From: an uncultured Holophagae bacterium | GTDB taxonomy: Bacteria; Acidobacteriota; Thermoanaerobaculia; Thermoanaerobaculales; Sulfomarinibacteraceae | NCBI GenBank assembly: GCA_963754985.1 | Contig: CAVWIJ010000001.1 | Location: 17,217-81,216, forward strand | DNA length: 64,000 nt | Reading direction: 5' to 3' | Shown: positions 42,205 to 64,000 of the stretch, piece after piece | How the letters are laid out: the number at the start of each line of letters is the position of its first letter | Position numbering within the stretch: position 1 is the stretch's first letter | Made by a program: the position numbers and the translations under genes | The notes under the pieces: generated by a model | Database searches by the model: none | The model's input: the letters and a program-made list of their open reading frames with translations, nothing else | Told to the model about the DNA's origin: nothing

Positions 42205-42291
42205 GCGAAAGTGGCGGAAGTGGTAGACGCGCAAGATTCAGGATCTTGTGCCCGCAAGGGCGTGGGGGTTCGAGTCCCCCCTTTCGCACCA
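42205..42291 (+). tRNA. tRNA-Leu, anticodon CAG, type II with long variable arm, CCA encoded
   Basis: Folded by hand. Acceptor GCGAAAG/CTTTCGC; anticodon stem CAAGA/TCTTG with loop TTCAGGA; variable arm GCCC-GCAA-GGGC; T arm GGGGG-TTCGAGT-CCCCC; then ACCA. Confidence 0.9.
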
Positions 42292-43375
42292 ACTCTCTGA
42301 TCAACCATCATCCGTCGACGCCAGCGTGGGGGTGGCTCGCGCGCTGCGCGCGCGGCGACCCGGCGGACTCTGCGGGCGGTTGTACGCCGCTCACCTCCCT
42401 CTCCGGTCGAGCTTCGCCCTCCCTGCGACCCCCCCGGCTACAACCGCATACCGCAGCCTCTCGCCGTGTGCGAGTCCCCCCTTTCGCACCAACTCTCTGA
42501 TCAACCATCGTCCTTCGACACCCGCGTGGGGGTGGCTCGCGCGCTGCGCGCGCGGCGACCCGGCGGACTCTGCGGGCGGTTGTACGGCGCTCACCTCCCT
42601 CTCCGGTCGGGCCTCGCCCTCCCTGCGACCCCCCCGGCTACAACCGCATACCGCAGCCTCTCGCCGTGTGCGAGTCCCCCCTTTCGCACCAACTCTCTGA
42701 TCAACCATCATCCGTCGACGCCAGCGTGGGGGTGGCTCGCTCGCTGCGCGCGCGGCGACCCGGCGGACTCTGCGGGCGGTTGTACGCCGCTCACCTCCCT
42801 CTCCGGTCGAGCTTCGCCCTCCCTGCGACCCCCCCGGCTACAACCGCATACCGCAGCCTCTCGCCGTGTGCGAGTCCCCCCTTTCGCACCAACTCTATGA
42901 TCAACCATCGTCCTTCGACACCCGCGTGGGGGTGGCTCGCGCGCTGCGCGCGCGGCGACCCGGCGGACTCTGCGGGCTGTTGTACGCCGCTCACCTCCCT
43001 CTCCGGTCGGGCCTCGCCCTCCCTGCGACCCCCCCGGCTACAACCCCATACCGCAGCCTCTCGCCGTGTGCGAGTCCCCCCTTTCGCACCAACTCTATGA
43101 TCAACCATCGTCCTTCGACACCCGCGTGGGGGTGGCTCGCGCGCTGCGCGCGCGGCGACCCGGCGGACTCTGCGGGCTGTTGTACGCCGCTCACCTCCCT
43201 CTCCGGTCGGGCCTCGCCCTCCCTGCGACCCCCCCGGCTACAACCGCATTCCGCAGCCTCTCGCCGTGTGCGAGTCCCCCCTTTCGCACCAACTCTCTGA
43301 TCAACCATCGTCCTTCGACACCCGCGTGGGGGTGGCTCGCGCGCTGCGCGCGCGGCGACCCGGCGGCGCTGGCGG
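42271..43375 (+). repeat. Tandem array of 200-bp units, each ending with the 21-nt 3' end of tRNA-Leu (5 full units plus a partial one)
   Basis: CGAGTCCCCCCTTTCGCACCA occurs at 42271 (the genuine tRNA), 42471, 42671, 42871, 43071 and 43271. Two unit variants are ordered A-B-A-B-B-partial. Confidence 0.95.
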
Positions 43376-43411: not shown

Positions 43412-44035
43412 ATGGCAGACCGACAAACACAGAGTCGGGATGGTGCCACCGTGAAAAATGATCACTCCCTTTTGGTCTGGGTCCTCGATCAAACCCTGGG
43501 GTTGCTCCTGAGCTCCGCGAGAACTGCCGAGCAGGAGGAGGCAGTCAAGGAACTCCGTACGCTCGCGTTGCTGCCAAAGCCGGACAAGTCAAAGCTCGAG
43601 TCGCTCGTGCATCGACTGGAGACGATGGTCTCGACCAAACCAGAGCCCATGCGAACAGAGCGCACCCTGAAACGTGCAGGAGTCATAGAGTCACGCCCTG
43701 TTCGCATAACCCTTGACCGTGAGTTGAACAGGCTGATTGAGTCCATCGGGAAGAAGTCAGCCGCGAGAAGAACTCCTGGCAAGAAGGCCGCGGTGAAGAA
43801 GACCGCCGTCAAGGCCCGCGCGAAAAAGACCACCACCAAGGCTGGCGGGAGAAAGGCCGCCGTACGGCCTGGCAGGATGAAAACCGCCGCAGAGGTTGGC
43901 GCGAAAAAGACCGCCGTCAAGGGCGGCGGGAAGAAGACCGCAGCCCTGGCTCCAAGGAAGAAGACCGCCAAGAGAGACGGCGGCAAGAAGACCGCCGCCG
44001 TCAAGAGTGTCCACAGAAAGACGACGCGAGCATGA
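43412..44035 (+). CDS. Histone H1-like / Lys-Ala-rich nucleoid-associated protein
   Basis: An N-terminal globular part is followed by a KKTA(V/A)K-type repeat tail (GKKAAVKKTAVKARAKKTTTKAGGRKAAV...GGKKTAAVKS). Local GC is visibly lower than the flanks. Confidence 0.6.
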   Translation: MADRQTQSRDGATVKNDHSLLVWVLDQTLGLLLSSARTAEQEEAVKELRTLALLPKPDKSKLESLVHRLETMVSTKPEPMRTERTLKRAGVIESRPVRITLDRELNRLIESIGKKSAARRTPGKKAAVKKTAVKARAKKTTTKAGGRKAAVRPGRMKTAAEVGAKKTAVKGGGKKTAALAPRKKTAKRDGGKKTAAVKSVHRKTTRA

Positions 44036-51019: not shown

Positions 51020-51100
51020 TCGCGAGCGAGGCCCCATCCTCCTGTCATCCCGAGCGAGCGGCAACGCCGCGAGTCGAGGGATCCCCCGAATCGACAGACG
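51020..51100. repeat. Hairpin module TGTCATCCCGAGCGAGCGGCAACGCCGCGAGTCGAGGGATCCCCC
   Basis: Direct reading. An identical module is seen at 51555-51602. Confidence 0.8.
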
Positions 51101-51166
51101 CCGTCCCGCCACGTCTTACCAGCCGCCGCGGATTCTCTCCTTTCCAATGGTGGGGGGGTGAATCGA

Positions 51167-51517: not shown

Positions 51518-51740
51518 CAGGTAATGGGGGTCATCCCGAGCAAGGCATCCTCTTCCTGTCATCCCGAGCGAGCGGCAACGCCGCGAGTCGAGGGATCCCC
51601 CGAATCCACAGACGCCGTCCAGCCGCGGCGTAGCCAACCGCGACTTGTCACGGCGTAGCCAGAGGCGAAGCCGGAAGCCGGAAGCCGCAGTCGGCCTGTC
51701 ACGGCGAAGTGCAAAGCACGGAGCCGGAAGGGATCCCCAC
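51471..51740. repeat. Composite hairpin modules followed by TGTCACGGCG..GCCGGAAG units
   Basis: Direct reading. The sequence shares more than 40-nt blocks with 47312-47475, 56027-56215 and 56850-56925. Confidence 0.8.
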
Positions 51741-51875
51741 CGTCAACGAGCGCCACCCGCAACCCGTCCCCTGCCCCGCCGTATGGACTCCGTGAGCCAT
51801 GACGTCGTCGCTGATTCGGAATCACTCCTGAAACTCGCCCAGCACACCGCGCCGGCGCGCGCGGAAGGAGAGGCC

Positions 51876-53305
51876 ATGAGAACGAAGCTCGCACTCACCG
51901 TCGTCGCGTCGCTGCTGCTCGCCGCCTCGTGGGCGGGCGCCGAGGAGGTCGCCGGCCTGCCGCTGCACGTCCAGCGGCTCGACCCGGGCACGATCCGGGT
52001 CTGGGTCGGCGACTCCATCTCGTCGACCGCGATGGTCGCCTTCGCGACCGAGAAGGGCATCGTGGTCGTCGACACCTTCGGCATCCCGAAGGTCGACGCC
52101 GAGCTGCGCACGGTCATCGCCCGCGAGCTCGGCCGCACCGACTTCAGGGTCCTCATCAACACCCACGAGCACGGCGACCACACCGGCGGCAACTCGGTCT
52201 ACGCCGACTGCACCATCGTCGGCCACGAGCTCGTCGCCGCCGGGCTCGCGGAGATCGCCGGCAACCGCGAGCGGATGCTCGAGCTGGCCCCGCGCGGCTC
52301 GCCGAGCTGGAGACCGAGCTCGCGAAGGCCGAGCCCGGCTCCCCCGAGGCGGCGCGGCTCCAGGAGGACCTGACCCTCCGGCGGCTCGACTTCGAGAAGG
52401 CGAAGGCGAACCTCGCCCCGGTCCCGCCGACCGAGACCTTCTCCGACCGCATGACGCTCGACATGGGCGACACCACCTTCGAGCTGTACTGGATCGGCGG
52501 CATGCACTCGGCGAGCGACATCGCCGTCTTCGTCCCGGAGCGCGGCCTGCTGCTGACCGGCGACACCATGGCCGACGTCTGGCTCACCGACACGCCGGGC
52601 TGCCTCGCCTGCTTCAGCGCGCGGTCCGGCGTCCGCCACGACTTCCCGCTGCTGCTCGCCAACTGGGACCGGCTGCTCGCCCAGAGGGACCAGATCAAGC
52701 GTCTGCTCCCCGGCCACTGGAACGGCGAGCTGTCGATCGCCGGCGCCGAGGCCAGGGTCGAGTACGTCCGGACGCTCTGGGACGGGCGTCACCGCGGCCG
52801 TCGCGGAGGGCAAGAGCTTCGACGAGCGTCCAGACGGAGTACCAGCTCGCCAGCCCGCTTCCCCGACCTCGCGAGCAGCCCCGGCTTCGCCCAGGCCAGG
52901 CACTACGGGACCATCGCCGAGATCTGGAGCGAGGTGACCGGCCAGCAGGCGGCCGCCACCGTGCTCTTCGCCCTGATCGACCAGGGCGCCGACGAGGCGG
53001 CCGTCCGCGCGGTCGTCGCCGACCGCTCGAGCACGTCGCCGAAGTACTTCTTCGTCGAGAACGAGATCAACGGCTACGGCTACTTCTTCCTCCAGGACGA
53101 CAAGGTCGAGCAGGCGATCAGGATGTTCAGGATCAACGTCGAGCTCTTCCCCGACTCGTGGAACGTCTACGACAGCCTGGGCGAGGCGCTGCTGCGCGCC
53201 GGCTCGACCGACGAGGCGGTGGCGATGTACGAGCGCTCGCTGGTCCTCAACCCGGACAACGCCAACGGCAGGGACGCCCTGGCCAAGATCCGCGCCGCCG
53301 CCTGA
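51876..53305 (+). CDS. Secreted MBL-fold metallo-hydrolase with a C-terminal TPR-like region, at least 3 frame changes
   Basis: Has a signal peptide MRTKLALTVVASLLLAASWAGA, HEHGDH (HxHxDH), and a tail DSLGEALLRAGSTDEAVAMYERSLVLNPDNA. Shifts lie near 52290 and within 52795-52860. Confidence 0.75.
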
Positions 53306-53307
53306 CC

Positions 53308-53510
53308 GTTGTAGCGCAGGCTTCCTGCCTGCCTTGTGGGGTAGGCATCCTGCCTGCCTTGTAGGCGTGGGCATCCTGCCTGCGTCCGGAGGCATCCTGC
53401 CTGCCTTGTAGGCGCAGGCATCCTGCCTGCCTTGTAGGGTAGGCATCCTGCCTGCCTTGTGGCGTGGGCATCTTGCCCGCGTCCCAGCATCCAGCCTGCT
53501 TGTAGCGCAG
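53308..53510. repeat. Tandem ~27-28-bp units built on the hairpin GCAGGCA-TCC-TGCCTGC (about 7 copies)
   Basis: GGCATCCTGCCTGCCTTGTAGG is repeated head to tail. The same family occurs at 54500-54712, 60171-60210 and 60855-60900. Confidence 0.85.
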
Positions 53511-53718: not shown

Positions 53719-54514
53719 ATGACGGAGGCACATGCGATCGGCGGACTGGACCGGAACGTTCTCCGGCAGGAGATCCGCAACGAGTACCGGGAGGTCGCAC
53801 GGCATCCCGACCGCGGCTTCCACTTCCACACCGGCAGAACGCTCGCCCGCCTCGTCGAGTACCACGACGAGTGGCTCGAGGGCATCCCCGAGCCGGTGAT
53901 CTCGCGCTTTGCAGGAACCGGCAACCCTTTCAGCATCCGCTCCCTCGTAGCCCGGCGAACGGGTCGTGGACCTGGGGTGCGGGGCGGGCATCGACAGCTT
54001 CATCGCCGCGCGACACGTGGGCCCCGAGGGCGCGGTCGTGGGCATCGACATGACCCCGGAGATGCTGGACACGGCGCGGTCTGCAAGGGCCGAAGCCGGG
54101 ATGGAGCACCTGGACTTCAGGCAGGGCTACCTGGAGCAGATCCCGGTCGACGACGGCTGGGCCGACGTGGTCATCTCCAACGGCGTCATCAACCTCTGCC
54201 CCGACAAGGGCGTCACCTTCCGGGAGATCCATCGCGTGCTCAAGCCCGGCGGCCGCCTCCAGATCGCCGACATCCTGGTGAGCCGTCCCGTCTCCGACTC
54301 GGCCAAGCGGCGCATCGACCTGTGGACCGGGTGAATCGCCGGCGCTCTGCTGGAAGCAGAGCTCGAGGCGATTGTTCGTGGCGCGGGGTTCGAGGACTTC
54401 GAGATCACCTGGAGGAAGCCCGTGTTCGAGGGTGCACCGCAGAGCTCGAGCGCGGCCGCCTTCGGAACCGTGGGCATCAACTACCGCGCATCCAAGCCGC
54501 GCGTTGTAGGGTAG
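53719..54514 (+). CDS. ArsM-like class I SAM-dependent methyltransferase, one frameshift near 53950 and an in-frame TGA at 54332
   Basis: Contains FAGTGNPF, motif I ERVVDLGCGAGID, VVISNGVINL and LKPGGRLQIADI, then RIDLWTG-TGA-IAGALLEAELEAIVRGAGFEDFEI in the same frame. The TGA replaces the Cys of the ArsM WxGC(I/L)AGAL motif. Confidence 0.75.
54335..54372 (+). promoter_or_regulatory. Stem-loop immediately 3' of the in-frame TGA (bacterial SECIS-like candidate)
   Basis: Structure is ATCGCC-ggc-GCTCTGC-TGGAA-GCAGAGC-tcga-GGCGAT: a 7-bp upper stem and 6-bp lower stem, with the apical loop 16 nt after the TGA. Confidence 0.4.
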
Positions 54515-54712
54515 GCATCCTGCCTGCCTGATCGCCTCGCGTTGTAGCGCAGGCATCTTGCCTGCCTTGTAGCGCAGGCATCCTGCCTGACGTCTCGCGT
54601 AGGGTAGGCATCTGCCTGCCTGATCGCCTCGCGTTGTAGGGTAGGCATCCTGCCTGCCTGATCGCCTCGCGTTGTAGCGCAGGCATCCTGCCTGCCTCTG
54701 GCTGCGAACGGC
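54500..54712. repeat. Tandem ~41-bp units of the GGCATCCTGCCTGCC family (about 5 copies)
   Basis: CGCGTTGTAG(G/C)G(T/C)AGGCATCCTGCCTGCCTGATCGCCT is repeated. The first unit supplies the stop codon of the methyltransferase. Confidence 0.85.
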
Positions 54713-54752
54713 ACGAGCTCGACGCGCGCGCCCAGCTGCTAGACTCCAGCCC

Positions 54753-55718
54753 ATGACGGACAAGGCCGGCAGCCGGAGCATGCGTGGGCCGCGGATGGTG
54801 GAGCACACCCTCAGCGCGCTCAACGGCTGCTTCGGCGACTACCTCGCTCAGACCGGCAGCGAGCTGCAGCAACCGATGGCGTTCTACCGGGATGCCCGGC
54901 CGGTGGCACCGGAGGAGCTCGCGGCACCTCCGACCGGCAAGCTCTGCGTCCTGGTGCACGGGCTCTGCTGCAACGAGGCGCTGTGGAGCTTCCCCGCGCC
55001 TCACGAGCCCGGCGATTACGGCGCGCTGTTGGACCGTCGCTGCGGCTACATGCCGCTGTACCTGCGCTTCAACACCGGCTTACGCATCTCCGAAAACGGC
55101 AAGCAGCTGGCCGCCCTCCTCGAGCGCTACTGCTCGCACCACGGCGCAGCGGTGACGGAGCTGCTGCTCATCGGGCACAGCATGGGCGGCCTCGTCATCC
55201 GCAGCGCCTGCCACCTCGGCAGCGAGGCGGGCCATGCCTGGGTGCACCTGGTGCGCCACGTCGTCTACCTGGGCGCTCCCCACCTGGGAGCGCCCCTGGA
55301 GCAGGTCACCAACGTGGCGACCCATGTGCTGGGCCTCTTCGACACCACCGCCACCCGCGTCGTCCGCGACCTGCTCAACACCCGCAGCGCGGGAGTGAAG
55401 GACCTCCGCTTCGGCAACCTGGTCGACTCGGACTGGCTCGACGGCGACCCGGACGAGCTGATGAACAATCGCCGCGTGCCCATCCCATGGCTCGCCACCG
55501 CGCGCCACCATCGCGTCGTGGGCCAGGTGCTGGCCGGAGCGGGGACGTTGGGCGACGGCATCGTGCGTCCGGACAGCGCCGCCGGCCGCGCCCGCGGCTC
55601 CCATCCCGGAGCGCCTGGATCCGATGTGCAGGTGATGCCCGGGCTCAACCACTTCGACCTGGCCCGGCACCCTGCCGTCTACGAGCACATCGAGCGCTGG
55701 GTGACCGCCGATGGATGA
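54753..55718 (+). CDS. Alpha/beta hydrolase (PGAP1/lipase-like)
   Basis: Contains LCVLVHGLCCNE, IGHSMGG and LNHFD. TGcTAGACT lies 8 nt upstream of the ATG. Confidence 0.75.
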   Translation: MTDKAGSRSMRGPRMVEHTLSALNGCFGDYLAQTGSELQQPMAFYRDARPVAPEELAAPPTGKLCVLVHGLCCNEALWSFPAPHEPGDYGALLDRRCGYMPLYLRFNTGLRISENGKQLAALLERYCSHHGAAVTELLLIGHSMGGLVIRSACHLGSEAGHAWVHLVRHVVYLGAPHLGAPLEQVTNVATHVLGLFDTTATRVVRDLLNTRSAGVKDLRFGNLVDSDWLDGDPDELMNNRRVPIPWLATARHHRVVGQVLAGAGTLGDGIVRPDSAAGRARGSHPGAPGSDVQVMPGLNHFDLARHPAVYEHIERWVTADG

Positions 55719-56028
55719 CCAGGACTGGCGCCGGCTCAGGGGACTCAAGCGCCTGATCCACGACGGCGTCAGGCAGGGCGCTGACTTCGTGGAGAAGCAC
55801 CACCGCCACGCCGCCGAGAAGACGTTCCGCGTGCTCGAGTCCATCCCGCCCATCGCCGCGCCCACCAAGGTCGTTCACGGCATCCACAACGGGGTGTTGC
55901 GGCTCAGCTATGGCGGCATTCGCACCGTCAATCACGCCATCGAGGCGGCGGATGACTGGCTGGTGGACCAGCTCGCCCCGGCCGACGACGATCACCGCCC
56001 CGACCACGACGCCCCGCCGGAGGCCTGA
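55711..56028 (+). CDS. Hypothetical protein, start overlaps the hydrolase stop (ATGA)
   Basis: 105 aa with non-shadow composition (LIHDGVRQGADFVEKHHRHAAEKTFRVLESIPP). No family recognised. Confidence 0.45.
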   Translation: MDDQDWRRLRGLKRLIHDGVRQGADFVEKHHRHAAEKTFRVLESIPPIAAPTKVVHGIHNGVLRLSYGGIRTVNHAIEAADDWLVDQLAPADDDHRPDHDAPPEA

Positions 56029-56215
56029 GGAGATTCCTCGACTCGGCGCCCCATGGGGCGCCTCGCTCGGAATGACAGTGTTGTTGGGGTCATCCCGAGC
56101 AAGCGGCCCAGCCCCCGCTCTCTTGTCATCCCGAGCAAGGCCACCATTCTTTTGTCATCCCGAGCGAGCCGCCCGTCAGGGCGGCGAGTCGAGGGATCCC
56201 CCGAATCCACAAGCG
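56027..56215. repeat. Composite hairpin-module element
   Basis: Same architecture as 47312-47475 and 51471-51610. Confidence 0.8.
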
Positions 56216-56307
56216 CCGCCCCTCTCGGCCTCGTCAACCTCCGCCGCACCCCTCCTTATGCATGGTGGAGAGGCGCAGGGTCATGCCGCTGGTGCTGTCA
56301 CGCTGTC

Positions 56308-56336
56308 TTGACGTTGTAACGCTATGACGTCATAGT
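56308..56336 (+). promoter_or_regulatory. Promoter/operator of the RHH-RelE module
   Basis: TTGACG at 56308, then the perfect 14-bp palindrome CTATGACGTCATAG (56322-56335), directly upstream of ATG 56343. Confidence 0.5.
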
Positions 56337-56342
56337 GTCGTC

Positions 56343-56573
56343 ATGAGCGACTCCCGCCGCGCGACCGTCTACCTCGACCCGGAGATCCACCGGGCCTTGA
56401 AGCTCAAGGCCGCCGTCTCCGATCGCTCGATCTCGGAGATGGTGAATGAGGCCGTGCGGCTCGCCCTGGCCGAGGACGCGGAAGACCTCGCAGCGTTCGA
56501 CGACCGCGTCGCCGAGCCGGACATCGACTTCGGCTCGTTCGTCAGGTCACTGAGGCGCCGTGGCCGGCTATAG
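56343..56573 (+). CDS. Ribbon-helix-helix antitoxin (RelB/ParD-like)
   Basis: MSDSRRATVYLDPEIHRALKLKAAVSDRSISEMVNEAVRLAL. It overlaps the downstream toxin gene. Confidence 0.8.
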   Translation: MSDSRRATVYLDPEIHRALKLKAAVSDRSISEMVNEAVRLALAEDAEDLAAFDDRVAEPDIDFGSFVRSLRRRGRL

Positions 56574-56829
56574 CCTCCGGATCAAGCCCTCGGCCGCAAA
56601 GGAGGTCGAGGCCATCGAGCCGAGGAAGCTCCGCCGTCAGGTTGTTGAGCATATCCGGCGGCTCGCCACCGACCCGCGACCGGGGGGCTGCGAGAAGTTG
56701 GCCGGCGGATCGGGTCGCTATCGGCTCCGCCAGGGGGCCTACCGGATCGTCTACTCGATCGAGGACGATGAGCACGTCGTCGTGGTGTTCAAGGTGGGCC
56801 ATCGGAGCGAGGTGTATCGAGATCGCTGA
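56560..56829 (+). CDS. RelE/ParE family toxin
   Basis: 89 aa with KLAGGSGRYRLRQGAYRIVYSIEDDEHVVVVFKVGHRSEVY. Confidence 0.85.
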   Translation: MAGYSLRIKPSAAKEVEAIEPRKLRRQVVEHIRRLATDPRPGGCEKLAGGSGRYRLRQGAYRIVYSIEDDEHVVVVFKVGHRSEVYRDR

Positions 56830-56898
56830 TCGCACCAGCTCCGCGCCCTCCCTCCTCCTGTCATCTCGAGCGAGGCCCGCACAGCGTGTCACGGCGAA

Positions 56899-57153
56899 GT
56901 GCAAAGCACGAAGCCGGAAGGGATCTCCTCCAACGGCGGCTGTGAGAGCCATCGCATCCTGTTCGAGGACAGCGAGTACGAAATCATCCTGCGGCATCAT
57001 GAGGACGTGGACCGCCGCAGCCAGGAGATCCTCGACCGCTACCGCATCCCGTCCGACCGCTCCCACCCTCTACGAACACCCGCGGCGATCTCGGCATCCG
57101 GACCTTCTGGTTACATTTCACCAACAATCACCGAACGCATGAACCTCCTATGA
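56899..57153 (+). CDS. Copy A of a three-copy conserved mini-ORF (unknown family)
   Basis: The core SHRILFEDSEYEIILRHHEDVDRRSQEILDRYRIPSDRS (56947-57064) is shared with 59851-60003 and 61993-62146. Substitutions are mostly synonymous in this frame. The GTG start lies inside a repeat element. Confidence 0.35.
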   Translation: MQSTKPEGISSNGGCESHRILFEDSEYEIILRHHEDVDRRSQEILDRYRIPSDRSHPLRTPAAISASGPSGYISPTITERMNLL

Positions 57154-57240
57154 GTAGGCCGGTGACTCTGGTCACGGCCACCGGCCTGCCCCAGGACGAT
57201 ATTGCTACCACGTCTCAACCGCTTGTGTGCGTGGGACTGA

Positions 57241-59664
57241 ATGGAGGGACGACTCATGAGTAGCTCGATACTGAAGAGAGGCTCGCCGGTTCTCTTCACC
57301 TGCGCGCTGCTGGCGTTCGCAGCCGCCGGTGTGATCGGCGATGACGATGGCTCGCCCAACGAGGCGAAGATGTACCGAGTCACGATCCAGAACCTCACTC
57401 CCGGCCAGCCCCTGTCGCCGCCGGTGGCCGCCACGCACCGGGGCGGCTTCCGCCTCTTCAGGGTTGGCGACGAGGCCTCGTCCGAGCTCGAGGCGATCGC
57501 TCGAGACGGTGACGAGGTTCCGATGCACGACCTGCTCGCCGGCCTCAGCCACGTGTTCGACGTGGTGGACGTGGGGGTGCCGCTGACGCCGTACGGATCG
57601 GTGGTTGGCGATGTCACCGACGCGGCCGAGTTCCTGATCGAGGGGCGCAACGGGGACAAGATCTCGCTGGCGTCGATGCTCGTCTGCACCAACGACGGCT
57701 TTGTCGGCCTCAACCGCGCCGAGCTTCCCGACACGGGGTCGAGCGTGTTCACGTTGCGCGGGTACGACGCCGGAGCCGAGGACAACACCGAGCTCAGTCC
57801 GGACATCGTCGACGCGTGCAGTGCCCTCGGCCCGCTGGTCCTGAACGGCGACCCCAACGGCAACGAGAACGCGGCGGTCAACACCGTGCCGCGCGGTGTG
57901 ATCGCGGCCCACCACGGCGTGCTCGGGGTCGGCGACCTCGGCGCGATCCACGAGATCCCGGCAGGGGTCGCGAAGGTCACCATCACCCGGGTATCGGACA
58001 GCGGCCGTGAGTTCTCGACGACTCTGAGCGGGGTCGGCGAGGTGCCGGTGGTTCAGACCGATGCCTCGGGAGAGGCCCGATTCAAGCTCGGCAACCGACA
58101 CGGTGACGACGACGATGACGACGATGGCGACGACGACGAAGACGACGGCGACGGCGATGACCGCATGTACCGCGCTGAGGCCCGCCTGCTGCCGTCCAGT
58201 GGGCCCCGGGGCGACGACGAGTCGCTGAGCTACCGGGTGTCGGCCGAGGACATCGTCGACGTGGTCGCGGCCCACATCCACGCCGGGCTGCCGAACGAGA
58301 GCGGCCCGATCGTGGCGACCCTGTACGGTCCGGCGGCCCCGTCGGGACCGGTGGACGGCACCTTCGCCCGGGGAACGCTGACGCCGGCCGACCTCGACGG
58401 AGGCCCATTCGCAGGAGACTGGGAGGGCTTCCTCGCGGCAATGGGACGGGGCGAGCTGTACGTGAACGTCCACACGGTGGAGTTCCCGGCCGGTGAGATC
58501 CGTGGCCAGGTCGGCGTCCGCAAGGGTGGTGGAGGAGGCGTCAACCTCAACCGTCCGCCCGACGGCGTCATCACCTCGCCGCCCGGCGACGTGGCGATCG
58601 CGCCCGGTGAGTCGGTGTTCTTCGAGGGCATGGCGAGCGATCCGGACGGCGACCCGGTTACCGTCGAGTGGGACTTCGGCGACGGCACCAGCTCCCCCGA
58701 CCTGGCGCCCGGCGACCACACCTACAACGACCCCGGCGTCTACCTGGTGACCTTCACCGCCACCGACGACCAGGGCCTCTCGGACCCGAGCCCCGACACG
58801 CGCACCATTACAGTGGGCGAGCAGAACAACCCGCCCGACGGCGTCATCACCTCGCCGCCCGGCGACGTGACGATCGCGCCCGGTGAGTCGGTGTTCTTCG
58901 AGGGCATGGCGAGCGATCCGGACGGCGACCCGGTTACCGTCGAGTGGGACTTCGGCGACGGCACCAGCTCCCCCGACCTGGCGCCCGGCGACCACACCTA
59001 CAACGACCCCGGCGTCTACCTCGTGACCTTCACCGCCACCGACGACCAGGGCCTCTCGGACCCGAGCCCCGACACGCGCACCATTACAGTGGGCGAGCAG
59101 AACAACCCGCCCGACGGCGTCATCACCTCGCCGCCCGGCGACGTGACGATCGCGCCCGGTGAGTCGGTGTTCTTCGAGGGCATGGCGAGCGATCCGGACG
59201 GCGATCCGGTCACCGTGGAGTGGGACTTCGGCGACGGCATCAGCTCCCCCGACCTGGCGCCCGGCGACCACACCTACAACGACCCCGGCGTCTACCTCGT
59301 GACCTTCACCGCCACCGACGACCAGGGCCTCTCCGACCCGACCCCCGACACGCGCACCATCACCGTGGAGGCGGGTCCGGCGGCGGCGACCCTGACCATG
59401 GTCCAGGACGCCATCTTCACGCCGAGCTGCACGGGGTGCCACGGCGGATCGAATCCCACCGCCGAGCTGAACCTCGAGCAAGGCCAGGCGCACGGCGACC
59501 TGGTCAACGTCCCGGCCACCACGCAGCCCGGGGTGCGGGTGATCCCGTTCGACGCGGACAACAGCGTCCTGGTGATCTTCCTCGACGACGGTCACCGCAA
59601 CCTGCCCGCGGACGACCGGCAGATGATCCGGTCGTGGATCGACGCGGGCGCGCTCGACAACTGA
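57241..59664 (+). CDS. Secreted multidomain protein: spondin_N, CHRD (with poly-Asp insert), 3 x PKD, C-terminal PSCyt-like CxxCH domain
   Basis: The spondin_N region has YRVTIQNLTPGQPLSPPVAATH...LVCTNDGFVGLN. The CHRD region has LSGVGEVP...AAHIHAGLPNESGPIV...LYVNVHTVEFPAGEIRGQV. The PKD units have VEWDFGDG...HTYNDPGVYLVTFTATDDQG. The C-terminal domain has IFTPSCTGCHGG...WIDAGA. Confidence 0.8.
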   Translation: MEGRLMSSSILKRGSPVLFTCALLAFAAAGVIGDDDGSPNEAKMYRVTIQNLTPGQPLSPPVAATHRGGFRLFRVGDEASSELEAIARDGDEVPMHDLLAGLSHVFDVVDVGVPLTPYGSVVGDVTDAAEFLIEGRNGDKISLASMLVCTNDGFVGLNRAELPDTGSSVFTLRGYDAGAEDNTELSPDIVDACSALGPLVLNGDPNGNENAAVNTVPRGVIAAHHGVLGVGDLGAIHEIPAGVAKVTITRVSDSGREFSTTLSGVGEVPVVQTDASGEARFKLGNRHGDDDDDDDGDDDEDDGDGDDRMYRAEARLLPSSGPRGDDESLSYRVSAEDIVDVVAAHIHAGLPNESGPIVATLYGPAAPSGPVDGTFARGTLTPADLDGGPFAGDWEGFLAAMGRGELYVNVHTVEFPAGEIRGQVGVRKGGGGGVNLNRPPDGVITSPPGDVAIAPGESVFFEGMASDPDGDPVTVEWDFGDGTSSPDLAPGDHTYNDPGVYLVTFTATDDQGLSDPSPDTRTITVGEQNNPPDGVITSPPGDVTIAPGESVFFEGMASDPDGDPVTVEWDFGDGTSSPDLAPGDHTYNDPGVYLVTFTATDDQGLSDPSPDTRTITVGEQNNPPDGVITSPPGDVTIAPGESVFFEGMASDPDGDPVTVEWDFGDGISSPDLAPGDHTYNDPGVYLVTFTATDDQGLSDPTPDTRTITVEAGPAAATLTMVQDAIFTPSCTGCHGGSNPTAELNLEQGQAHGDLVNVPATTQPGVRVIPFDADNSVLVIFLDDGHRNLPADDRQMIRSWIDAGALDN
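58555..59370 (+). repeat. Three near-identical 276-bp (92-codon) tandem repeats encoding the PKD domains
   Basis: Unit starts (CCGCCCGACGGCGTCATCACC) are at 58555, 58831 and 59107. Only a handful of differences between units are seen by eye. Confidence 0.9.
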
Positions 59665-59850
59665 CCGCGGGGCGTCCGCCGGCCAAGGCGGACGGCAACG
59701 CAGCCGAGAAGGCCGTCCCGTGCCGCGCGCCCGCCAGACGTGAACGGCCCGGAGCCATATGAGGGCCACGACGGACCGAGGGGGAGGCCGACGCCTCCCC
59801 CTCGACCTTCCTCCCACGGCGTCGAGCTGCTCTCGAGCCGTAACGGCGAG

Positions 59851-60003
59851 AGCCACCGGATCCTGCTCGAGGACAGCGAGTGCGAGATCGTCCTGCGGCA
59901 CGAGGACGTGGACCGCCGCAGCCAGGAGATCCTCGACCGCTACCGTATCCCGTCCGACCGCTCCCCTGGCCTGATGGCAATGAAGCCCTCGCCCGCTGTC
60001 GAC
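59851..60003 (+). other. Copy B of the three-copy conserved coding-like segment (no nearby start codon)
   Basis: SHRILLEDSECEIVLRHEDVDRRSQEILDRYRIPSDRSPGLMAMKPSPAVD. It is in frame only with a distant ATG at 59740. Confidence 0.3.
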
Positions 60004-60231
60004 GCGACCGCCTCCGTCGGACCCAGCTCGAGCAAATCGTCTCTAGCCTCGCCCTCGGTCTCGTCCGCAATGACAGGCTTGAGGGAGTTGCGGTCAGCCG
60101 GTACCCGCAACCCACCGCGCTCTGGCAGCTCACGCTTGAACGGCGGAATGGCGTGCCCGGCACCCGTCTGGGCATCCTGCCTGCCTTGTGGGGTAGGCAT
60201 CCTGCCTGCCTCGCCCGCAGGCTGCGCCTGT

Positions 60232-60462
60232 CTACGACGCCTCCTCGAGGTGCCGGGCGATCAGGATCTTGATCAGCGACTGGCGCGGCACGCCGAGCCG
60301 CGACGCCTCGCGATCCAGCGAGTCAATCATCCATACCGGGAAGTCGACATTCACACGACGCTGCTCGTGCCCCGGGCGCCGCGCCCTTGACATGTCGAGA
60401 TACCTCGTCACGTCCTCGCCGGCGTCAAACTTCCGGTCAAGCTCCTTGGCTTTCACCTTCAT
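60232..60462 (-). CDS. brnA: BrnA antitoxin (CopG/RHH type)
   Basis: MKVKAKELDRKFDAGEDVTRYLDMSRARRP...RVNVDFPVWMIDSLDREASRLGVPRQSLIKILI. Confidence 0.8.
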   Translation of the reverse strand: MKVKAKELDRKFDAGEDVTRYLDMSRARRPGHEQRRVNVDFPVWMIDSLDREASRLGVPRQSLIKILIARHLEEAS

Positions 60463-60712
60463 AGCTCGCGATCTCCTCTTCTCGGGCACGGCGAACGGAG
60501 ATGATCCGCACGCGTTCGTCGCGGTAGGTCACGATCCCCGCCCAGGTCTCGTTGCCAATCCTGCCCACGACGAGATACCGCGGCTCATCGAGTGTCCGCG
60601 CCGGGATCTCGATGAGGTCTGGGTCGTCCCACAGAGCCTGCGCCTCAACGAAGTCAATCCCGTGCTTCTGCTGGTTCGAGTGGCTCTTCCGTGGATCGAA
60701 CTCGAACTCCAT
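60437..60712 (-). CDS. brnT: BrnT toxin (DUF497)
   Basis: MEFEFDPRKSHSNQQKHGIDFVEAQALWDDP...RIISVRRAREEE. Confidence 0.85.
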   Translation of the reverse strand: MEFEFDPRKSHSNQQKHGIDFVEAQALWDDPDLIEIPARTLDEPRYLVVGRIGNETWAGIVTYRDERVRIISVRRAREEEIASYEGESQGA

Positions 60713-60748
60713 GGTATAAAAAGTATACCCCACACATACACTTGTCAA
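60713..60748 (-). promoter_or_regulatory. Candidate promoter/operator abutting the BrnT start (possibly a leaderless transcript)
   Basis: The minus strand reads TTGACA-15 nt-TATACT-TTTTATACC-ATG. The palindrome GGTATAAAAAGTATACC (60713-60729) touches the start codon and no RBS is visible. Confidence 0.4.
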
Positions 60749-61142
60749 TTCCAGCCCCGGCAGGAATCGGCTCAGCACATAGCCCCGACGATCGCCATCG
60801 AGCGCCCCGGCCCCTCGGGCCAAGGCCCTCTTCGTGTCTTCCCGAGCGATTGTGGCGTCGGCATCCTGCCTGCCTTGTGGCGTCGGCATCTTGCCGGCGA
60901 TGCAGCACCGCTTGTCACTGCGCCTCGTCACGGCGGCTTGTCACGGCGGCTTGTCACGGCATAGCCAGAGGCGAAGCCGGAAGCCGGAAGTCGAGGGATC
61001 CCCGGATCGCACGAGCGCCATCCCGCCTACGGGCTGCCAACCCCACCACAGCCCTCCTTGTGGATGATCGGGAGGCGTAGAAAGGGCTCGTTCGCGCCTT
61101 CGTGCCCGTGCCCGCAAATGGTCTGGGAGGGGGGGTATGCCC

Positions 61143-61177
61143 TTGACGCGGAATCTGACAAACTGTACAATTTGTCA
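61143..61177 (+). promoter_or_regulatory. Promoter/operator of the Phd-RelE module
   Basis: TTGACG (61143), a 17-nt spacer, then TACAAT (61166). The inverted repeat TGACAAA...TTTGTCA (61156-61177) spans the -10 element. Confidence 0.55.
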
Positions 61178-61224
61178 GGATTGCCAAACCGCGACGAGGC
61201 AGTGCGCGGCACAGGAGAGACGCA

Positions 61225-61500
61225 ATGGTACCGCTCGAGAAGGTCACGGCAAGCGACGCGCGCAACGCCTTTTCAGAACTCATCAGCTCGGTGAAGTACG
61301 GCAAACGCCGCGTCTGCATCACCAGCAACGGGAAGGACATGGCCGCGATGATCCCGCTCCAGGACCTGGAAGTCCTCGAGGCTCTGCTGCGCCGATACGA
61401 GGATGAGGTCGACTCCCGCGACGCGAAGATCGCCCTCGAGGAGGCGGAGCGCGAAGGCACCGTTTCGCTTGACGAACTCATCGCCGAGATCGGACTGTGA
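61225..61500 (+). CDS. Phd/YefM family antitoxin
   Basis: VTASDARNAFSELISSVKYGKRRVCITSNGKDMAAMIPLQDLEVLE. Its stop overlaps the toxin start. Confidence 0.85.
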   Translation: MVPLEKVTASDARNAFSELISSVKYGKRRVCITSNGKDMAAMIPLQDLEVLEALLRRYEDEVDSRDAKIALEEAEREGTVSLDELIAEIGL

Positions 61501-61791
61501 AAGACGACTCCTCCCGGAGCTACGTCGTTCGGATCGCCCCAGCCGCCAGGCGCGAGATCAAGCACCTCTCAAAGCAGAACCAGCGCCGAGTCGTCGCCGT
61601 GATGCAGGGGCTCGCCGTCAACCCCAGGCCGCACGGCTACACACCGGTGGAGGGCCTTGACGGGCTGTTCAAGGTGCGGGTCGGCGACTACAGAGTCATC
61701 TACACTGATAGAAGACGGCAAGCTCTTGGTGATCGTTGTGAGGGTCCGCCACCGCAGCGACGTCTACCGTCATCTGAAAGGCCTCCGCTAG
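61497..61791 (+). CDS. RelE/ParE family toxin, one frameshift near 61705
   Basis: YVVRIAPAARREIKHLSKQNQRRVVAVMQGLAVNPRPHGYTPVEGLDGLFKVRVGDYRVIYT, then after a frame change IEDGKLLVIVVRVRHRSDVYRHLKGLR. Confidence 0.8.
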
Positions 61792-61944
61792 CGACGCCGC
61801 CTTACCGCGCCCGTCATCCCGAATGAGGCGCACCCCTCGCTTCAATGTCATCCCGAGCGAGGCCTACCCTCCTCCTGTCATCCCGAGCAGCCTGTCACGG
61901 CGTAGTGCACCGCACGAAGCCGGAAGTCGACTTGTCACGGCGTA

Positions 61945-62223
61945 GTGCACCGCACGAAGCCGGAAAGGATCCCCTCCAACCGCGACGGCGGGAGCCACCG
62001 CATCATGCTCGAGGACAGCGAGTGCGAGATCGTCCTGCGGCACGAGGACGTGGACCGCCGCAGCCAGGAGATCCTCGACCGCTACCGCGTCCCGGCCGAC
62101 CGCTCCCCGGACCTGATGGCAATGAAGTCCTCACCCGCGGTCGACCCGCCCGCCGACTACCGCGACCGCCGAGGTCACACCGACGAGCCTCCCGCAACCC
62201 CAACCTCGGCTGCTTCCCAATGA
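61945..62223 (+). CDS. Copy C of the three-copy conserved mini-ORF
   Basis: SHRIMLEDSECEIVLRHEDVDRRSQEILDRYRVPADRSPDLMAMKSSPAVD. The GTG start is inside a TGTCACGGCG..GCCGGAA repeat unit, as in copy A. Confidence 0.35.
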   Translation: MHRTKPERIPSNRDGGSHRIMLEDSECEIVLRHEDVDRRSQEILDRYRVPADRSPDLMAMKSSPAVDPPADYRDRRGHTDEPPATPTSAASQ

Positions 62224-62638
62224 CGGCTCTGAGGCGATGCTGTCAGTCGGTGCCTACAAGCGGCCGCACTTCGGGGGACTCAGCTGGAATGGCGGAATGG
62301 CGTGCCTGCCACCCACCGGTGAAGTACCGGCCGTGCTGACGTGTACGAAACCGGACGCCGAACGACCCTCCGGATCCGCCACCCGCGCCCCACTCGGAGC
62401 TGCCAGTGCGAGCCGCAGCCCTCCTTTTGCATGGTGGGGAGACGCACGGGATGCAGAAGCGAGCGGCCCACATCCTGACCAAAACGAACGCATGTCCGAG
62501 CGCAGGTCGTGTGGGCACAACCCGACGGGTTGACGCGGCCGGCGTTAAGGCCCATCGTGGGTGCAGCACTTGCTCCCCGTTGGACCAGCCGCAAGGCCTC
62601 CGGCGGGGTTTTGTATTTCAAGGACGTCTTCATGCCGC

Positions 62639-62677
62639 TTGACACGCGAGCGCGATGGTATGACCATTAGTCATACC
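62639..62677 (+). promoter_or_regulatory. Promoter/operator of the RHH-MazF module
   Basis: TTGACA at 62639, the perfect inverted repeat GGTATGAC-cattag-GTCATACC (62657-62677), then a GGAGGTGG RBS and ATG 62689. Confidence 0.5.
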
Positions 62678-62688
62678 GGAGGTGGCCG

Positions 62689-62931
62689 ATGGCCAGCGCA
62701 AAGATCGCGGTGAGCCTCCACAAGAGCACGGTCGAACGCCTCGATCGCCTGGTCGAGCAGGGAACGTATCCGAGCCGCAGCCGCGCGATTCAGGACGCGG
62801 TCGACGAGAGGCTGGCCCGGCTGACCCGCGATCGGCTTGCCCGCGAGTGCGCGAAGCTCGACCCCGAGTACGAGGCGGCGTTGGCCGAGGAGGGCATGGG
62901 CTCGGAGGCTGAGCAGTGGCCCGAGTACTGA
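62689..62931 (+). CDS. Ribbon-helix-helix antitoxin (MazE functional analog)
   Basis: KIAVSLHKSTVERLDRLVEQGTYPSRSRAIQDAVDERL. It overlaps the toxin gene. Confidence 0.8.
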   Translation: MASAKIAVSLHKSTVERLDRLVEQGTYPSRSRAIQDAVDERLARLTRDRLARECAKLDPEYEAALAEEGMGSEAEQWPEY

Positions 62932-63254
62932 GAGGTGAGGTGTACTGGGCAGACCTCGGTCCTGTGACTGGGCGAGAGCAGTCCGGTCGCCGGCCGGTCC
63001 TCGTCATCAGCCACGACGTTTTCAACGAAAGGTCCGGCACGGTCATCGCCATGGCGATCACCAGCCAGGCTCAGCGGGCGGGGTTCCCACTGACTCTCGA
63101 GATCGCGGAGCCGGGATTGCCGAAGCAGTCCTGGCTCAAGATCAGCCAGGTCCGCACCCTCTCGTCCATCAGGCTCGGTGAACGCATCACCGCCCTCTCC
63201 CCCGAGCTCGTCAACCAGGCAATCGACGGCCTCAACGAGATCGTCGCCACCTGA
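62916..63254 (+). CDS. mazF: MazF/PemK family endoribonuclease toxin
   Basis: GEVYWADLGPVTGREQSGRRPVLVISHDVFN and SWLKISQVRTLSSIRL. Confidence 0.85.
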   Translation: MARVLRGEVYWADLGPVTGREQSGRRPVLVISHDVFNERSGTVIAMAITSQAQRAGFPLTLEIAEPGLPKQSWLKISQVRTLSSIRLGERITALSPELVNQAIDGLNEIVAT

Positions 63255-63318
63255 CAACCCCTCGGCCCTCGGTTTCGCGATCCGGTAGAATCTTACTTGT
63301 AAGAATGGAGTTGATGAC

Positions 63319-63584
63319 ATGACGAGGATTGCCACAACCAAGATGTCGTCGAAGGGCAGGTCGTGCATCCCGGAAGGTGCGGGTCGCCCTCGGCCTCGAA
63401 GCAGGGTCGCAGTTCGTGGTAGTTGGCAAGGGCGACGTCGTCGTGCTCAAGAAGGTCACTCCCCCTCGATGTTCGACTTCGACGGATCCTCGAGGAAGCC
63501 CGCCGCCAAGCCAGGCAGGCCGGGATGAAGCGGGCGGACGTGACTGCCGCGATCAAGCCGACTCGGCCGAAGCGCAGCCGGTGA
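63319..63584 (+). pseudogene. AbrB/SpoVT/MazE-type DNA-binding protein, at least 4 frame changes as written
   Basis: Fragments are MTRIATTKMSSKG, QVV, KVRVALGLEAGSQFVVVGKGDVVVLKKVTPP, SMFDFDG and ILEEARRQARQAGMKRADVTAAIKPTRPKRSR, spread over three frames. Confidence 0.55.
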
Positions 63585-63641
63585 TACCCCGAGAGTTCTG
63601 TTGACTCCGTCCTCTGGCAACGCGCTCGGTATACTTGACTC

Positions 63642-63932
63642 ATGACGCGCACCGACGTACTGCAGACTCTCCACAGCTACGCCGACGATCTTCGATCTAT
63701 GGGCGTGGCACGGATCGCCGTCTTTGGATCCGCCGCCCGGAACGAGGCAGTCCCGGGAAGCGACATCGACATCCTCATCGAGTTCGATCGTGCTGTAGGC
63801 CTTCTACACTTTGTCCGCGTCAAGCGTTACCTCGAGGGCCTACTCCACGCAAGCGTTGATCTCGTCACGACTGACGCGCTTCATCCCGCACTTCGGGAGC
63901 GGATTCTCCGAGAGGCCATCAATGCCGCATAG
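63642..63932 (+). CDS. Nucleotidyltransferase (MNT/MntA-type antitoxin)
   Basis: VFGSAARNEAVPGSDIDILIEF (a GSx10DxD-type motif). Confidence 0.85.
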   Translation: MTRTDVLQTLHSYADDLRSMGVARIAVFGSAARNEAVPGSDIDILIEFDRAVGLLHFVRVKRYLEGLLHASVDLVTTDALHPALRERILREAINAA

Positions 63933-64000
63933 GTCGTGGCGGTTCAGGATCCAGGACATCCTGGACGCCATTGACCGTGTGAGCCGCTACGTCGAAGGCC
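63922..64000 (+). CDS. HEPN/DUF86 (HepT-type) toxin, 5' end only
   Basis: MPHRSWRFRIQDILDAIDRVSRYVEG overlaps the MNT stop. The gene continues beyond the window. Confidence 0.6.
   Translation, partial: MPHRSWRFRIQDILDAIDRVSRYVEG

Follow-up and report, generated by a model that had tools for sequence, protein, structure and literature searches.

Three 3′-end relics of a Deg/HtrA-type protease gene among toxin-antitoxin modules of an uncultured Holophagae bacterium

A 64,000-nucleotide (nt) stretch of DNA from an uncultured Holophagae bacterium (GenBank assembly GCA_963754985.1, contig CAVWIJ010000001.1, positions 17,217 to 81,216 of the forward strand; hereafter the window) contains three homologous segments, A, B, and C, scattered among toxin-antitoxin (TA) modules. 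A sequence-only reading of the window had taken the core that they share for a new small coding unit that could not be assigned to any family. We found that the core matches the end of the PDZ_3 domain (PF17815), and homology to genes of related genomes shows that the segments derive, as relics, from the 3′ end of a secreted Deg/HtrA-type serine protease gene (Trypsin_2, PDZ, and PDZ_3). Alignment placed all three on the + strand at the positions first reported (repeat families D8 and D14), and comparison with intact congener genes revealed that their true extents are larger than first described:

Copy A, 56942-57064, + strand: relic of about 40 codons (SHRILFEDSEYEIILRHHEDVDRRSQEILDRYRIPSDRS) that ends after DRS, with an R2 repeat unit fused at its left edge
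Copy B, 59811-60165, + strand: the last ~85 codons and ~93 nt beyond the position of the native stop, with no miniature inverted-repeat transposable element (MITE) at its left edge
Copy C, 61974-62316, + strand: the last ~75 codons, the native stop (..TSAASQ*, 62221-62223) and 93 nt beyond it, with an R2 unit at its left edge

B and C each comprise about 250 nt of coding sequence and about 93 nt downstream of the native stop. All three copies are direct repeats with different cargo in between, and the open reading frames (ORFs) over them encode 84 amino acids (aa) (A), 216 aa, and 92 aa (C). A genome-wide census found these three copies and no further ones in the source metagenome-assembled genome (MAG; G000, 4.73 Mb in 32 contigs, 71.7% complete): with copy B as the DNA query, 41 places were returned at E values of up to 10, of which just A, B, and C had E values below 1e-40, the other 38 having values of at least 0.016.

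PDZ_3 was matched in all three copies at the end of its profile (positions 97 to 145 of 145), with 22.0 bits for A, 25.9 bits for B, and 24.0 bits for C, the Pfam cut-off being 22.8 bits. The spans of two of these matches were as follows:

Copy A: PDZ_3 profile positions 103-144 of 145 (Pfam)
Copy B: PDZ_3 profile positions 97-144 of 145 (Pfam)

None of the four minus-strand ORFs scanned over the copies matched a Pfam family. When 63 residues of B were compared with 1.84 billion representative proteins by phmmer, 17 hits were obtained at E values of up to 0.001; these were 41 to 190 aa long and mostly 71 to 92% identical. In protein P0002, 89% identical to B, the homology to PDZ_3 reaches further upstream (E 7.8e-17), and P0013 contains a complete PDZ_3 (E 1.6e-37) with the core motif at its end. 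The parent gene is present in two congeners, G003 and G006. In G006 it encodes 525 aa with Trypsin_2 (1.2e-23), a weak PDZ_2 match, and PDZ_3 (3.7e-37), and one source labels it ‘serine protease [Thermoanaerobaculales bacterium]’ (P0064). Among solved structures, it is closest to Arabidopsis Deg2 and Deg9 (PDB 4FLN, 5IL9, and 5ILB; E 8.7e-84 to 1.9e-92), with which it aligns end to end; the repeated core aligns to the last ~45 residues of both. Unlike Deg2 and Deg9, the bacterial parent gene has a variable low-complexity tail after the domain. The window departs further from the Deg/HtrA PDZ_3 proteases, since it holds the last 40 to 110 codons three times without the protease domain. No trypsin-like domain lies in frame with any of the window copies, while G006 has one, and the copies are therefore relics that cannot be proteases rather than members of this group. 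The G003 gene (locus L044, G003:C1, 15897-17160) is without residues ~84-202 relative to G006 and has lost the region of the NPGSSGGP serine motif; it is probably a pseudogene too.

No full-length parent gene was found in G000, where PF17815 gave three pieces only and a search with the G006 protein returned C-terminal pieces and distant HtrA paralogues (~30% identity), with no catalytic part. A tblastn hit on contig C27 (E 0.001), considered as a second full-length gene, proved to be a junk frame. The gene is sporadic: of 41 relatives, 77 genomes of the family, and 119 genomes of the order that were searched, only 3 gave a match in each case, namely G000, G003, and G006. In these three genomes all extra matches of at least 60% identity lie at residue 435 or later of the 525, and thus are 3′ pieces, with no 5′ piece among them. 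At the DNA level, copy A is 89% identical to the intact G006 gene (L045 13882-14000, blastn) and also matched G003, and copy B is 83% identical over 351 nt to the 3′ end of the resident G003 gene (L044 16154-15805). The core of copy C is 100% identical to L051 and 99% identical to L052, which is native, and its tail is 94% identical to a protease fragment of G003, f2. The surroundings agree: window positions 51729-53430 match the MBL-TPR gene upstream of the G006 gene (84%), and sequence just past the window, at the equivalent of 67064-69916, is 91% identical to downstream genes of G003, flanking synteny that supports one shared locus. The sequence-only reading had allowed that the copies might be gene remnants, with a transposase or a TA component in mind; gene remnants they are, of a protease.

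The case for a small protein had been built on the kinds of substitution that separate the copies. The count for A versus B was exact, with 8 substitutions, of which 5 are synonymous and 3 conservative (F/L, Y/C, and I/V), and one extra His codon. For B versus C (59851-60003 and 61993-62146), the 5 synonymous changes were reproduced, and the total of 12 substitutions fell to 10 on recounting. The sites at which A, B, and C differ are often polymorphic among intact native alleles (R4 CGC/CGG, I/L5, L/M6, I/V34, and A/S36), which indicates that those differences arose under selection in working genes. The substitutions private to A, 3 synonymous and 3 non-synonymous, are all G:C>A:T transitions and are accompanied by one inserted His codon; with ~90% G+C at third positions, this spectrum alone gives many silent changes. 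The cleanest test is the comparison of C with G003 f2, two copies that share the R2 junction and the tail type. Over their full length it gave Sd 3.0/51.7 and Nd 14.0/158.3, and in the 42-codon core 1 synonymous and 8 non-synonymous changes. These counts agree with neutrality (binomial p 0.78), and an omega of 0.3 was rejected (one-sided p 0.004), so that the codon-level check proposed for the copies revealed no purifying selection. Pairs of native genes are biased in the opposite direction (for example, a ratio of synonymous to non-synonymous changes of 5 : 0 for L048-L052). The synonymous bias is thus in part inherited allele polymorphism, and the remainder is neutral G:C>A:T decay in A.

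The copies are also damaged as reading frames. A is truncated within the domain after ..DRS, the stop of B is removed by a 1-nt indel (alignment and translation), and a second G003 fragment, f1, is frameshifted by a 2-nt deletion. What speaks for a family of small proteins of ~70 to 120 aa with starts supplied by a repeat unit is that in C the frame stays open all the way from a repeat-borne GTG to the native stop, that 56 short ORF clusters with the core have been called in metagenomes, and that 5 of the 8 A-B changes are synonymous. The sequence in question amounts to no more than the final strands of a PDZ_3 domain, however; the frames of A, B, and f1 are broken or truncated; the starts come from unrelated sequences and differ from copy to copy, with more than 10 types of left junction in the protein census described below; and C and f2 differ in the core by 1 synonymous and 8 non-synonymous changes. 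The small-protein reading is therefore largely refuted, and we give it very little credence. The claim of coding constraint, as opposed to a repetitive extragenic palindromic (REP) or RNA element, holds in so far as the imprint of constraint is real, and fails in that the constraint belonged to the parent gene. A structured RNA or hairpin site was considered and rejected, as Rfam gave no match at E values of up to 1 in 55500-64000. The same fate met a core hairpin of the attC or REP type, for which single-strand DNA folds of both strands had z scores of -0.14 to 0.48, no better than shuffles. The consensus fold of the post-stop region was weak (-8.7 kcal/mol, with a covariation term of -0.57).

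The three copies do not share one recent origin. An alignment was made of 14 copies, drawn from the genomes G000, G003, and G006 and from six short metagenome contigs obtained with a DNA pattern scan. Core identity was 88 to 100% among all of these except the G006 fragment (G006f, 73 to 80%) and the fragment on contig L047 (82 to 88%, a figure inflated by its non-homologous left junction). Identity in the low-complexity tail ranged from 56 to 94% among B, C, and the other full-length copies, with 66% for B and C, 76% for B and the native G003 end, and 94% for C and G003 f2. The post-stop region of B is 81% identical to that of the resident G003 gene, and the two gene ends form a clade with support of 98/97. 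Because B groups with the native G003 end and C with G003 f2, B and C are not recent duplicates of each other, and these groupings show them to belong to different allele lineages, so that at least two copy types were present before G000 and G003 diverged. Both types, B-like and C-like, also occur as the ends of apparently native genes elsewhere. Synonymous divergence between two native genes was 0.17 in the core and 0.335 in the rest of the gene, small counts that we do not treat as evidence.

The edges of the copies are constant on one side only. Homology between most copies extends to the same right edge, ~93 nt after the native stop, where it ends in the motif GGCGGAATGGCGTGCCNGGCAC. The edge features in the window are as follows:

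60143..60165, + strand: right-edge motif (GGCGGAATGGCGTGCCNGGCAC) of copy B, where homology between the copies stops (alignments)
62292..62316, + strand: right-edge motif of copy C (alignments)
56884..56931, + strand: dispersed repeat R2 (TGTCACGGCG..GGAAGGGATC; family D16), which adjoins A and gives the GTG of the 84-aa ORF
61890..61977, + strand: two R2 units (family D16, alignment), which adjoin C and give the GTG of the 92-aa ORF

That the GTG starts of A and C come from a dispersed repeat had been recognized in the sequence-only reading, and family D16 indeed has four copies in the window (at 51694, 56884, 61890, and 61930) and is dispersed across genomes of the same genus. The left edges vary, with 6 junction types in 8 aligned fragments and a 7th in L048. 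One R2 junction (GGATCCCC|TCCAAC) is common to A, C, and G003 f2, and B, G003 f1, G006f, L047, and L051 have a separate junction each. As a candidate attachment (att) site, the right-edge motif has only two other loci in G000, a small number: C12:809284 and, in a shorter form, C12:452943. Both sites (L073 and L074) are intergenic and carry the 20-nt motif found at the end of the repeat unit (GGCGGAATGGCGTGCC.GGCAC). One of the two has on one side a tRNA-like stretch with MITEs and on the other a gene pair of lower GC that, read from ORF translations alone, resembles a helix-turn-helix protein and a Fic-domain protein, the Fic-type ‘mobile mystery’ pair. The right flank of A (57065-57150) is a dispersed element in its own right, present at two places in G002 and also in G003, and on G002 C121 the same MITE and the same right flank surround a different middle of ~85 nt with no protease fragment.

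An artefact of assembly, or a repeat collapsed or expanded in the MAG, might be suspected of a source genome in 32 contigs that is 71.7% complete. The copies differ by 4 to 8% in the core and far more in the tail, though, each has its own flanks, and their junctions have counterparts in independent data (P0001 for B, P0006 for the right end of A, and L047 and G003 f2 for C), which leaves this explanation scarcely credible.

As the sequence-only reading had described, each copy lies downstream of a TA pair or of a large secreted PKD/CHRD protein (Pfam). The modules around the copies are as follows:

56343..56829, + strand: ribbon-helix-helix (RHH) antitoxin (56343-56573, RHH_1 E 1.4e-4) and ParE toxin (56560-56829, E 2.8e-13), upstream of A
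57241..59664, + strand: 807-aa secreted protein, Spondin_N-like, with CHRD and 3 x PKD, the cargo between A and B
60232..60712, - strand: BrnA antitoxin (60232-60489) and BrnT toxin (~60437 to an ATG at ~60712), first part of the cargo between B and C
61225..61791, + strand: Phd/YefM antitoxin (61225-61500, PhdYeFM E 7.9e-12) and a broken ParE, second part of the cargo between B and C
62689..63254, + strand: RHH antitoxin (62689-62931, RHH_1 E 5.4e-5) and MazF/PemK toxin (62916-63254, PemK_toxin E 3e-28), downstream of C

In the 807-aa protein, PKD_4 (E 7.6e-54) and CHRD (E 5.3e-23) were matched, and its gene contains 276-nt tandem repeats (family D2); the flanks of this cassette in congeners were uninformative save for the dispersed right flank of A. 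BrnA matched CopG_antitoxin (E 7.3e-7) and its partner BrnT_toxin (E 1.3e-23; Pfam). The ParE of the Phd-ParE pair is split near 61704, with ParE_toxin positions 1-71 of 89 in the 61497-61826 frame and the C-terminal part in the 61657-61791 frame. One base at 61704 is missing in one relative's contig, and the split reflects either a genuine frameshift that inactivates the toxin or an error of long-read assembly. The pairing of a C-type fragment with MazEF recurs in metagenome contig L047 (82% over 1108 nt).

In the explanation to which we lend somewhat more belief than doubt, the copies are non-functional 3′ relics of one protease gene, the last 40 to 110 codons each, left by additive insertions of modules. 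Small cargo modules (TA pairs and the secreted PKD protein) would have been inserted one after another at the 3′ end of the gene, each insertion leaving or bringing one more copy of the gene end; the 5′ part would later have been lost in the G000 lineage, and the copies would then have recombined with one another and with MITE-like repeats. Their synonymous-rich differences were inherited from alleles that diverged inside working genes, with neutral G:C>A:T decay making up the rest. Within this explanation, we judge it about evenly balanced whether the relics do mark successive additive insertions.

Comparable arrays were found elsewhere. In G003 the order is the gene, f1, vapBC, HIT/HNH genes, a partial relic, vapBC, and f2, and further partial relics lie at L044 8943-9101 and 12431-12512; the gene that heads this array is the internally deleted one. 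The vapC pair of this array is 97% identical over 300 nt, which identifies a recent block duplication (fragment piece, vapB, and vapC). In L048 a gene end heads the array and is followed by AbiEi/AbiEii and a second 3′ copy, which starts further upstream and runs off the contig.

Several observations weigh against additive insertion at the gene end. No integrase, resolvase, or transposase was found in or beside the arrays examined (Pfam scan of neighbouring ORFs). Tyrosine recombinases (PF00589) are represented by two Xer-like genes and one partial gene on C31 in G000 and by two genes in G003, all elsewhere, and no serine recombinase (PF00239) was found genome-wide in G000 or G003. A single precise att crossover would not produce left edges that vary as they do here; a constant crossover boundary was sought, and only the right edge is constant, the left differing in the protein census as well. 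Native genes show no clear excess of synonymous conservation in the core, as an att site might. The G006 relic precedes the intact gene by 3.7 kb instead of following it, and in G000 no intact gene heads the array. Since the MAG is incomplete, an intact gene may sit in its unassembled part, which limits statements about gene loss, just as statements about frameshifts are limited by the possibility that the 1-nt indels of B and ParE are long-read assembly errors. Genes for Y1 (IS200/RAYT-type) transposases are distant only, with 3 matches in G000, 8 in G003, and 3 in G006. Three tyrosine-recombinase genes are clustered in G006 13 to 19 kb upstream of the protease relic (G006:C6:13023-19369) and may belong to a separate mobile element.

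A purely local history is a serious rival. By this account, which we consider possible and clearly the less probable of the two, the relics arose by local segmental duplication, deletion, and illegitimate recombination mediated by MITE or REP elements, with no insertion directed at the 3′ end, and the cargo came or was swapped later. The block duplication in G003 is an instance of such a process; the R2 junction shared by A, C, and G003 f2 argues for descent from one fused copy; and in the census proteins P0010 and P0062 a MITE-like unit is inserted inside a longer copy at the site of that junction. The region is dense in repeat families (D3, D4, D7, D9, D11, and D16), the left junctions are many and irregular, and no recombinase was found nearby. 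Four observations stand against it. The three G000 intervals hold unrelated cargo, none of it duplicated; the extra pieces are all 3′ and none 5′, a bias that undirected rearrangement would not be expected to produce; B and C correspond to native alleles of different types in other genomes; and most copies end at one and the same right edge.

The behaviour of the core beyond these genomes was followed in a census of a protein collection of 5.8 billion clusters, with the core accepted at E values of up to 1e-5. The core was present in 56 of 58 candidate short ORFs (50 to 161 aa), some of which may be genes cut by contig ends, and in 7 of 61 longer ones (162 to 2000 aa), 2 of these being full length. 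Some of these proteins have longest contigs of identical length (17,129 nt for P0030, P0044, and P0053; 31,559 nt for P0041 and P0046; 16,846 nt for P0052 and P0057; and 5,300 nt for P0047 and P0065), a coincidence that suggests, though it does not prove, that single contigs hold several fragments. Viral contigs yielded no exact pattern match and no protein relative. Flanks were sorted for 65 of 68 proteins, the distant homologues P0013, P0017, and P0068 being left out. The flank patterns are rough, as 30 left ends were uninformative and the right class ‘alt/other’ includes missed native-like tails; with that proviso, all four combinations of native and foreign left and right flanks occur around the core:

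Native left and native right: P0002, P0021, P0064
Native left and foreign right: P0051, P0065, P0067
Foreign left and native tail: 13 proteins
Foreign on both sides, with a named right-end type: P0006, P0012, P0044, P0052, P0055, P0057 (6)

A single left junction, TLTFDMS|, is combined with the native tail in P0019 and P0027 and with the A-type end in P0006, and such sharing of one left junction by different right ends indicates that copies recombined within the core.

These reassortments bear on the idea that the core is a selected, portable recombination site, with circles of cargo and core that excise and re-enter at cores by homologous recombination or through an enzyme acting in trans. 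Cargo does lie between direct core repeats in G000, G003, and L048, the four flank combinations all occur, and short ORF clusters outnumber longer ones by 56 to 7. Other orders of the modules were seen in contigs of relatives from four sequencing runs, which are weak hints, as they derive from other organisms at 90 to 95% likeness and no piece spans the stretch. In two of them (X2 and X4) the usual right edge (60164) is joined to the right flank of A (57079) with 5 letters between, and in X2 a BrnA piece lies 83 letters from RHH-ParE. The matching sequencing runs carry at most 0.26 of the sampled words, and there is no RNA run among those listed. Against a portable core stand the lack of an enzyme candidate, of a hairpin, of a clear excess of synonymous conservation in native genes, and of any copy on viral contigs, and no circle junction was seen. 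We regard this idea as improbable. A broader proposal, still rather unlikely in our judgement, is that in Thermoanaerobaculia/Holophagae the protease 3′ end serves as a landing pad for small cassettes without an integrase (TA pairs, AbiE, and a secreted protein), each with one copy of the core; the cassettes would enter and leave by recombination at the core, and the arrays would build up, reshuffle, and perhaps outlive the protease gene.

Several other features of the locus deserve mention. At 63290-63567 lies what is left of an AbrB-type vapB antitoxin gene. Its frame is broken, it is 81% identical to the vapB after the G003 protease fragments, and an insertion of MazEF seems to have separated it from copy C. 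Arrays in which a 25-nt unit with a perfect small hairpin (GCAGGCA-TCC-TGCCTGC) is repeated in tandem occur at 53303-53497, 54498-54729, 60161-60226, and 60844-60915, and also just past the window at ~64299-64505; they lie at module borders and look like REP or bacterial interspersed mosaic elements, with no adjacent Y1 gene. A composite MITE-like element (..CTGTCATCCCGAGCGAGC..GCCGCGAGTCGAGGGATCCCC, then ~60 nt to ..CCTCCTT.TGCATGGTGG; families D7, D9, D11, and D12) is found at 51024-51160, 51553-51640, 56154-56273, and 60983-61080, just upstream of small operons (GIY-YIG, RHH-ParE, and Phd-ParE), and it may carry an outward promoter. Outside the array, five tandem copies with a 200-nt period and 96 to 99% identity occupy 42268-43367 (family D1), and adjacent to them six copies with a 27-nt period lie in a Lys/Ala/Thr-rich reading frame at 43768-43983 (family D5).

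Among known systems, the arrangement recalls the icd locus of Escherichia coli K-12. There, the e14 prophage occupies the 3′ end of icd and brings a substitute for that end, and the original C-terminal fragment persists, displaced, as the pseudogene icdC (PMC13626634). In both cases a direct repeat of a gene 3′ end flanks inserted DNA, the copies differ mainly by synonymous or conservative changes, and recombination between copies yields chimeras (PMC13626634). The e14 prophage encodes its own site-specific recombination system and has one defined attachment site, whereas the arrays described here yielded no integrase and have variable left edges. The cargo at icd is a prophage, whereas that of the window consists of modules of 1 to 3 kb; up to three to five relics lie in a row here, and in G000 the head of the gene is gone. 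Compared with the class of displaced 3′ ends, G000 has the direct repeats and is without three defining marks, namely a neighbouring integrase, a single crossover point, and an intact head gene.

Two further systems invite comparison. At the 3′ end of fda in Streptococcus thermophilus, the site of ICESt1, cis-mobilisable elements without an integrase accrete. The likeness lies in small integrase-less elements separated by repeated gene 3′ ends, whereas short defined att sites and the known integrase of the integrative and conjugative element were shown there and not here. Chromosomal integrons carry arrays of cassettes with attC sites, TA cassettes included. Such arrays resemble the present one in their small promoter-poor modules, many of them TA modules, separated by a recurring sequence of ~100 nt, but the repeat here is coding DNA without a hairpin and with irregular edges, and no IntI-type integrase lies nearby.

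For annotation, the 84-, 216-, and 92-aa ORFs, together with dozens of similar “hypothetical proteins” in metagenome catalogues, would best carry the label of protease pseudogene fragments and not that of small proteins. The finding as first posed, a new small coding unit, thus has an ordinary explanation, and the recurring architecture is a modestly interesting lead. The relics may be seen as tide marks of a dispensable protease gene whose end would repeatedly have received different TA and other small modules in this lineage, with the repeated core also allowing flanks to reassort. If no defined mechanism were at work, the array would reflect ordinary genome decay in a repeat-rich island. 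If the landing-pad proposal were true, a borrowed piece of coding sequence would play the part of the ‘att site’ in a cassette system, and any enzyme involved would be something other than a classical integrase encoded nearby. And if the insertions use a defined mechanism without a neighbouring integrase, they would constitute an added route for the spread of TA and defence modules.

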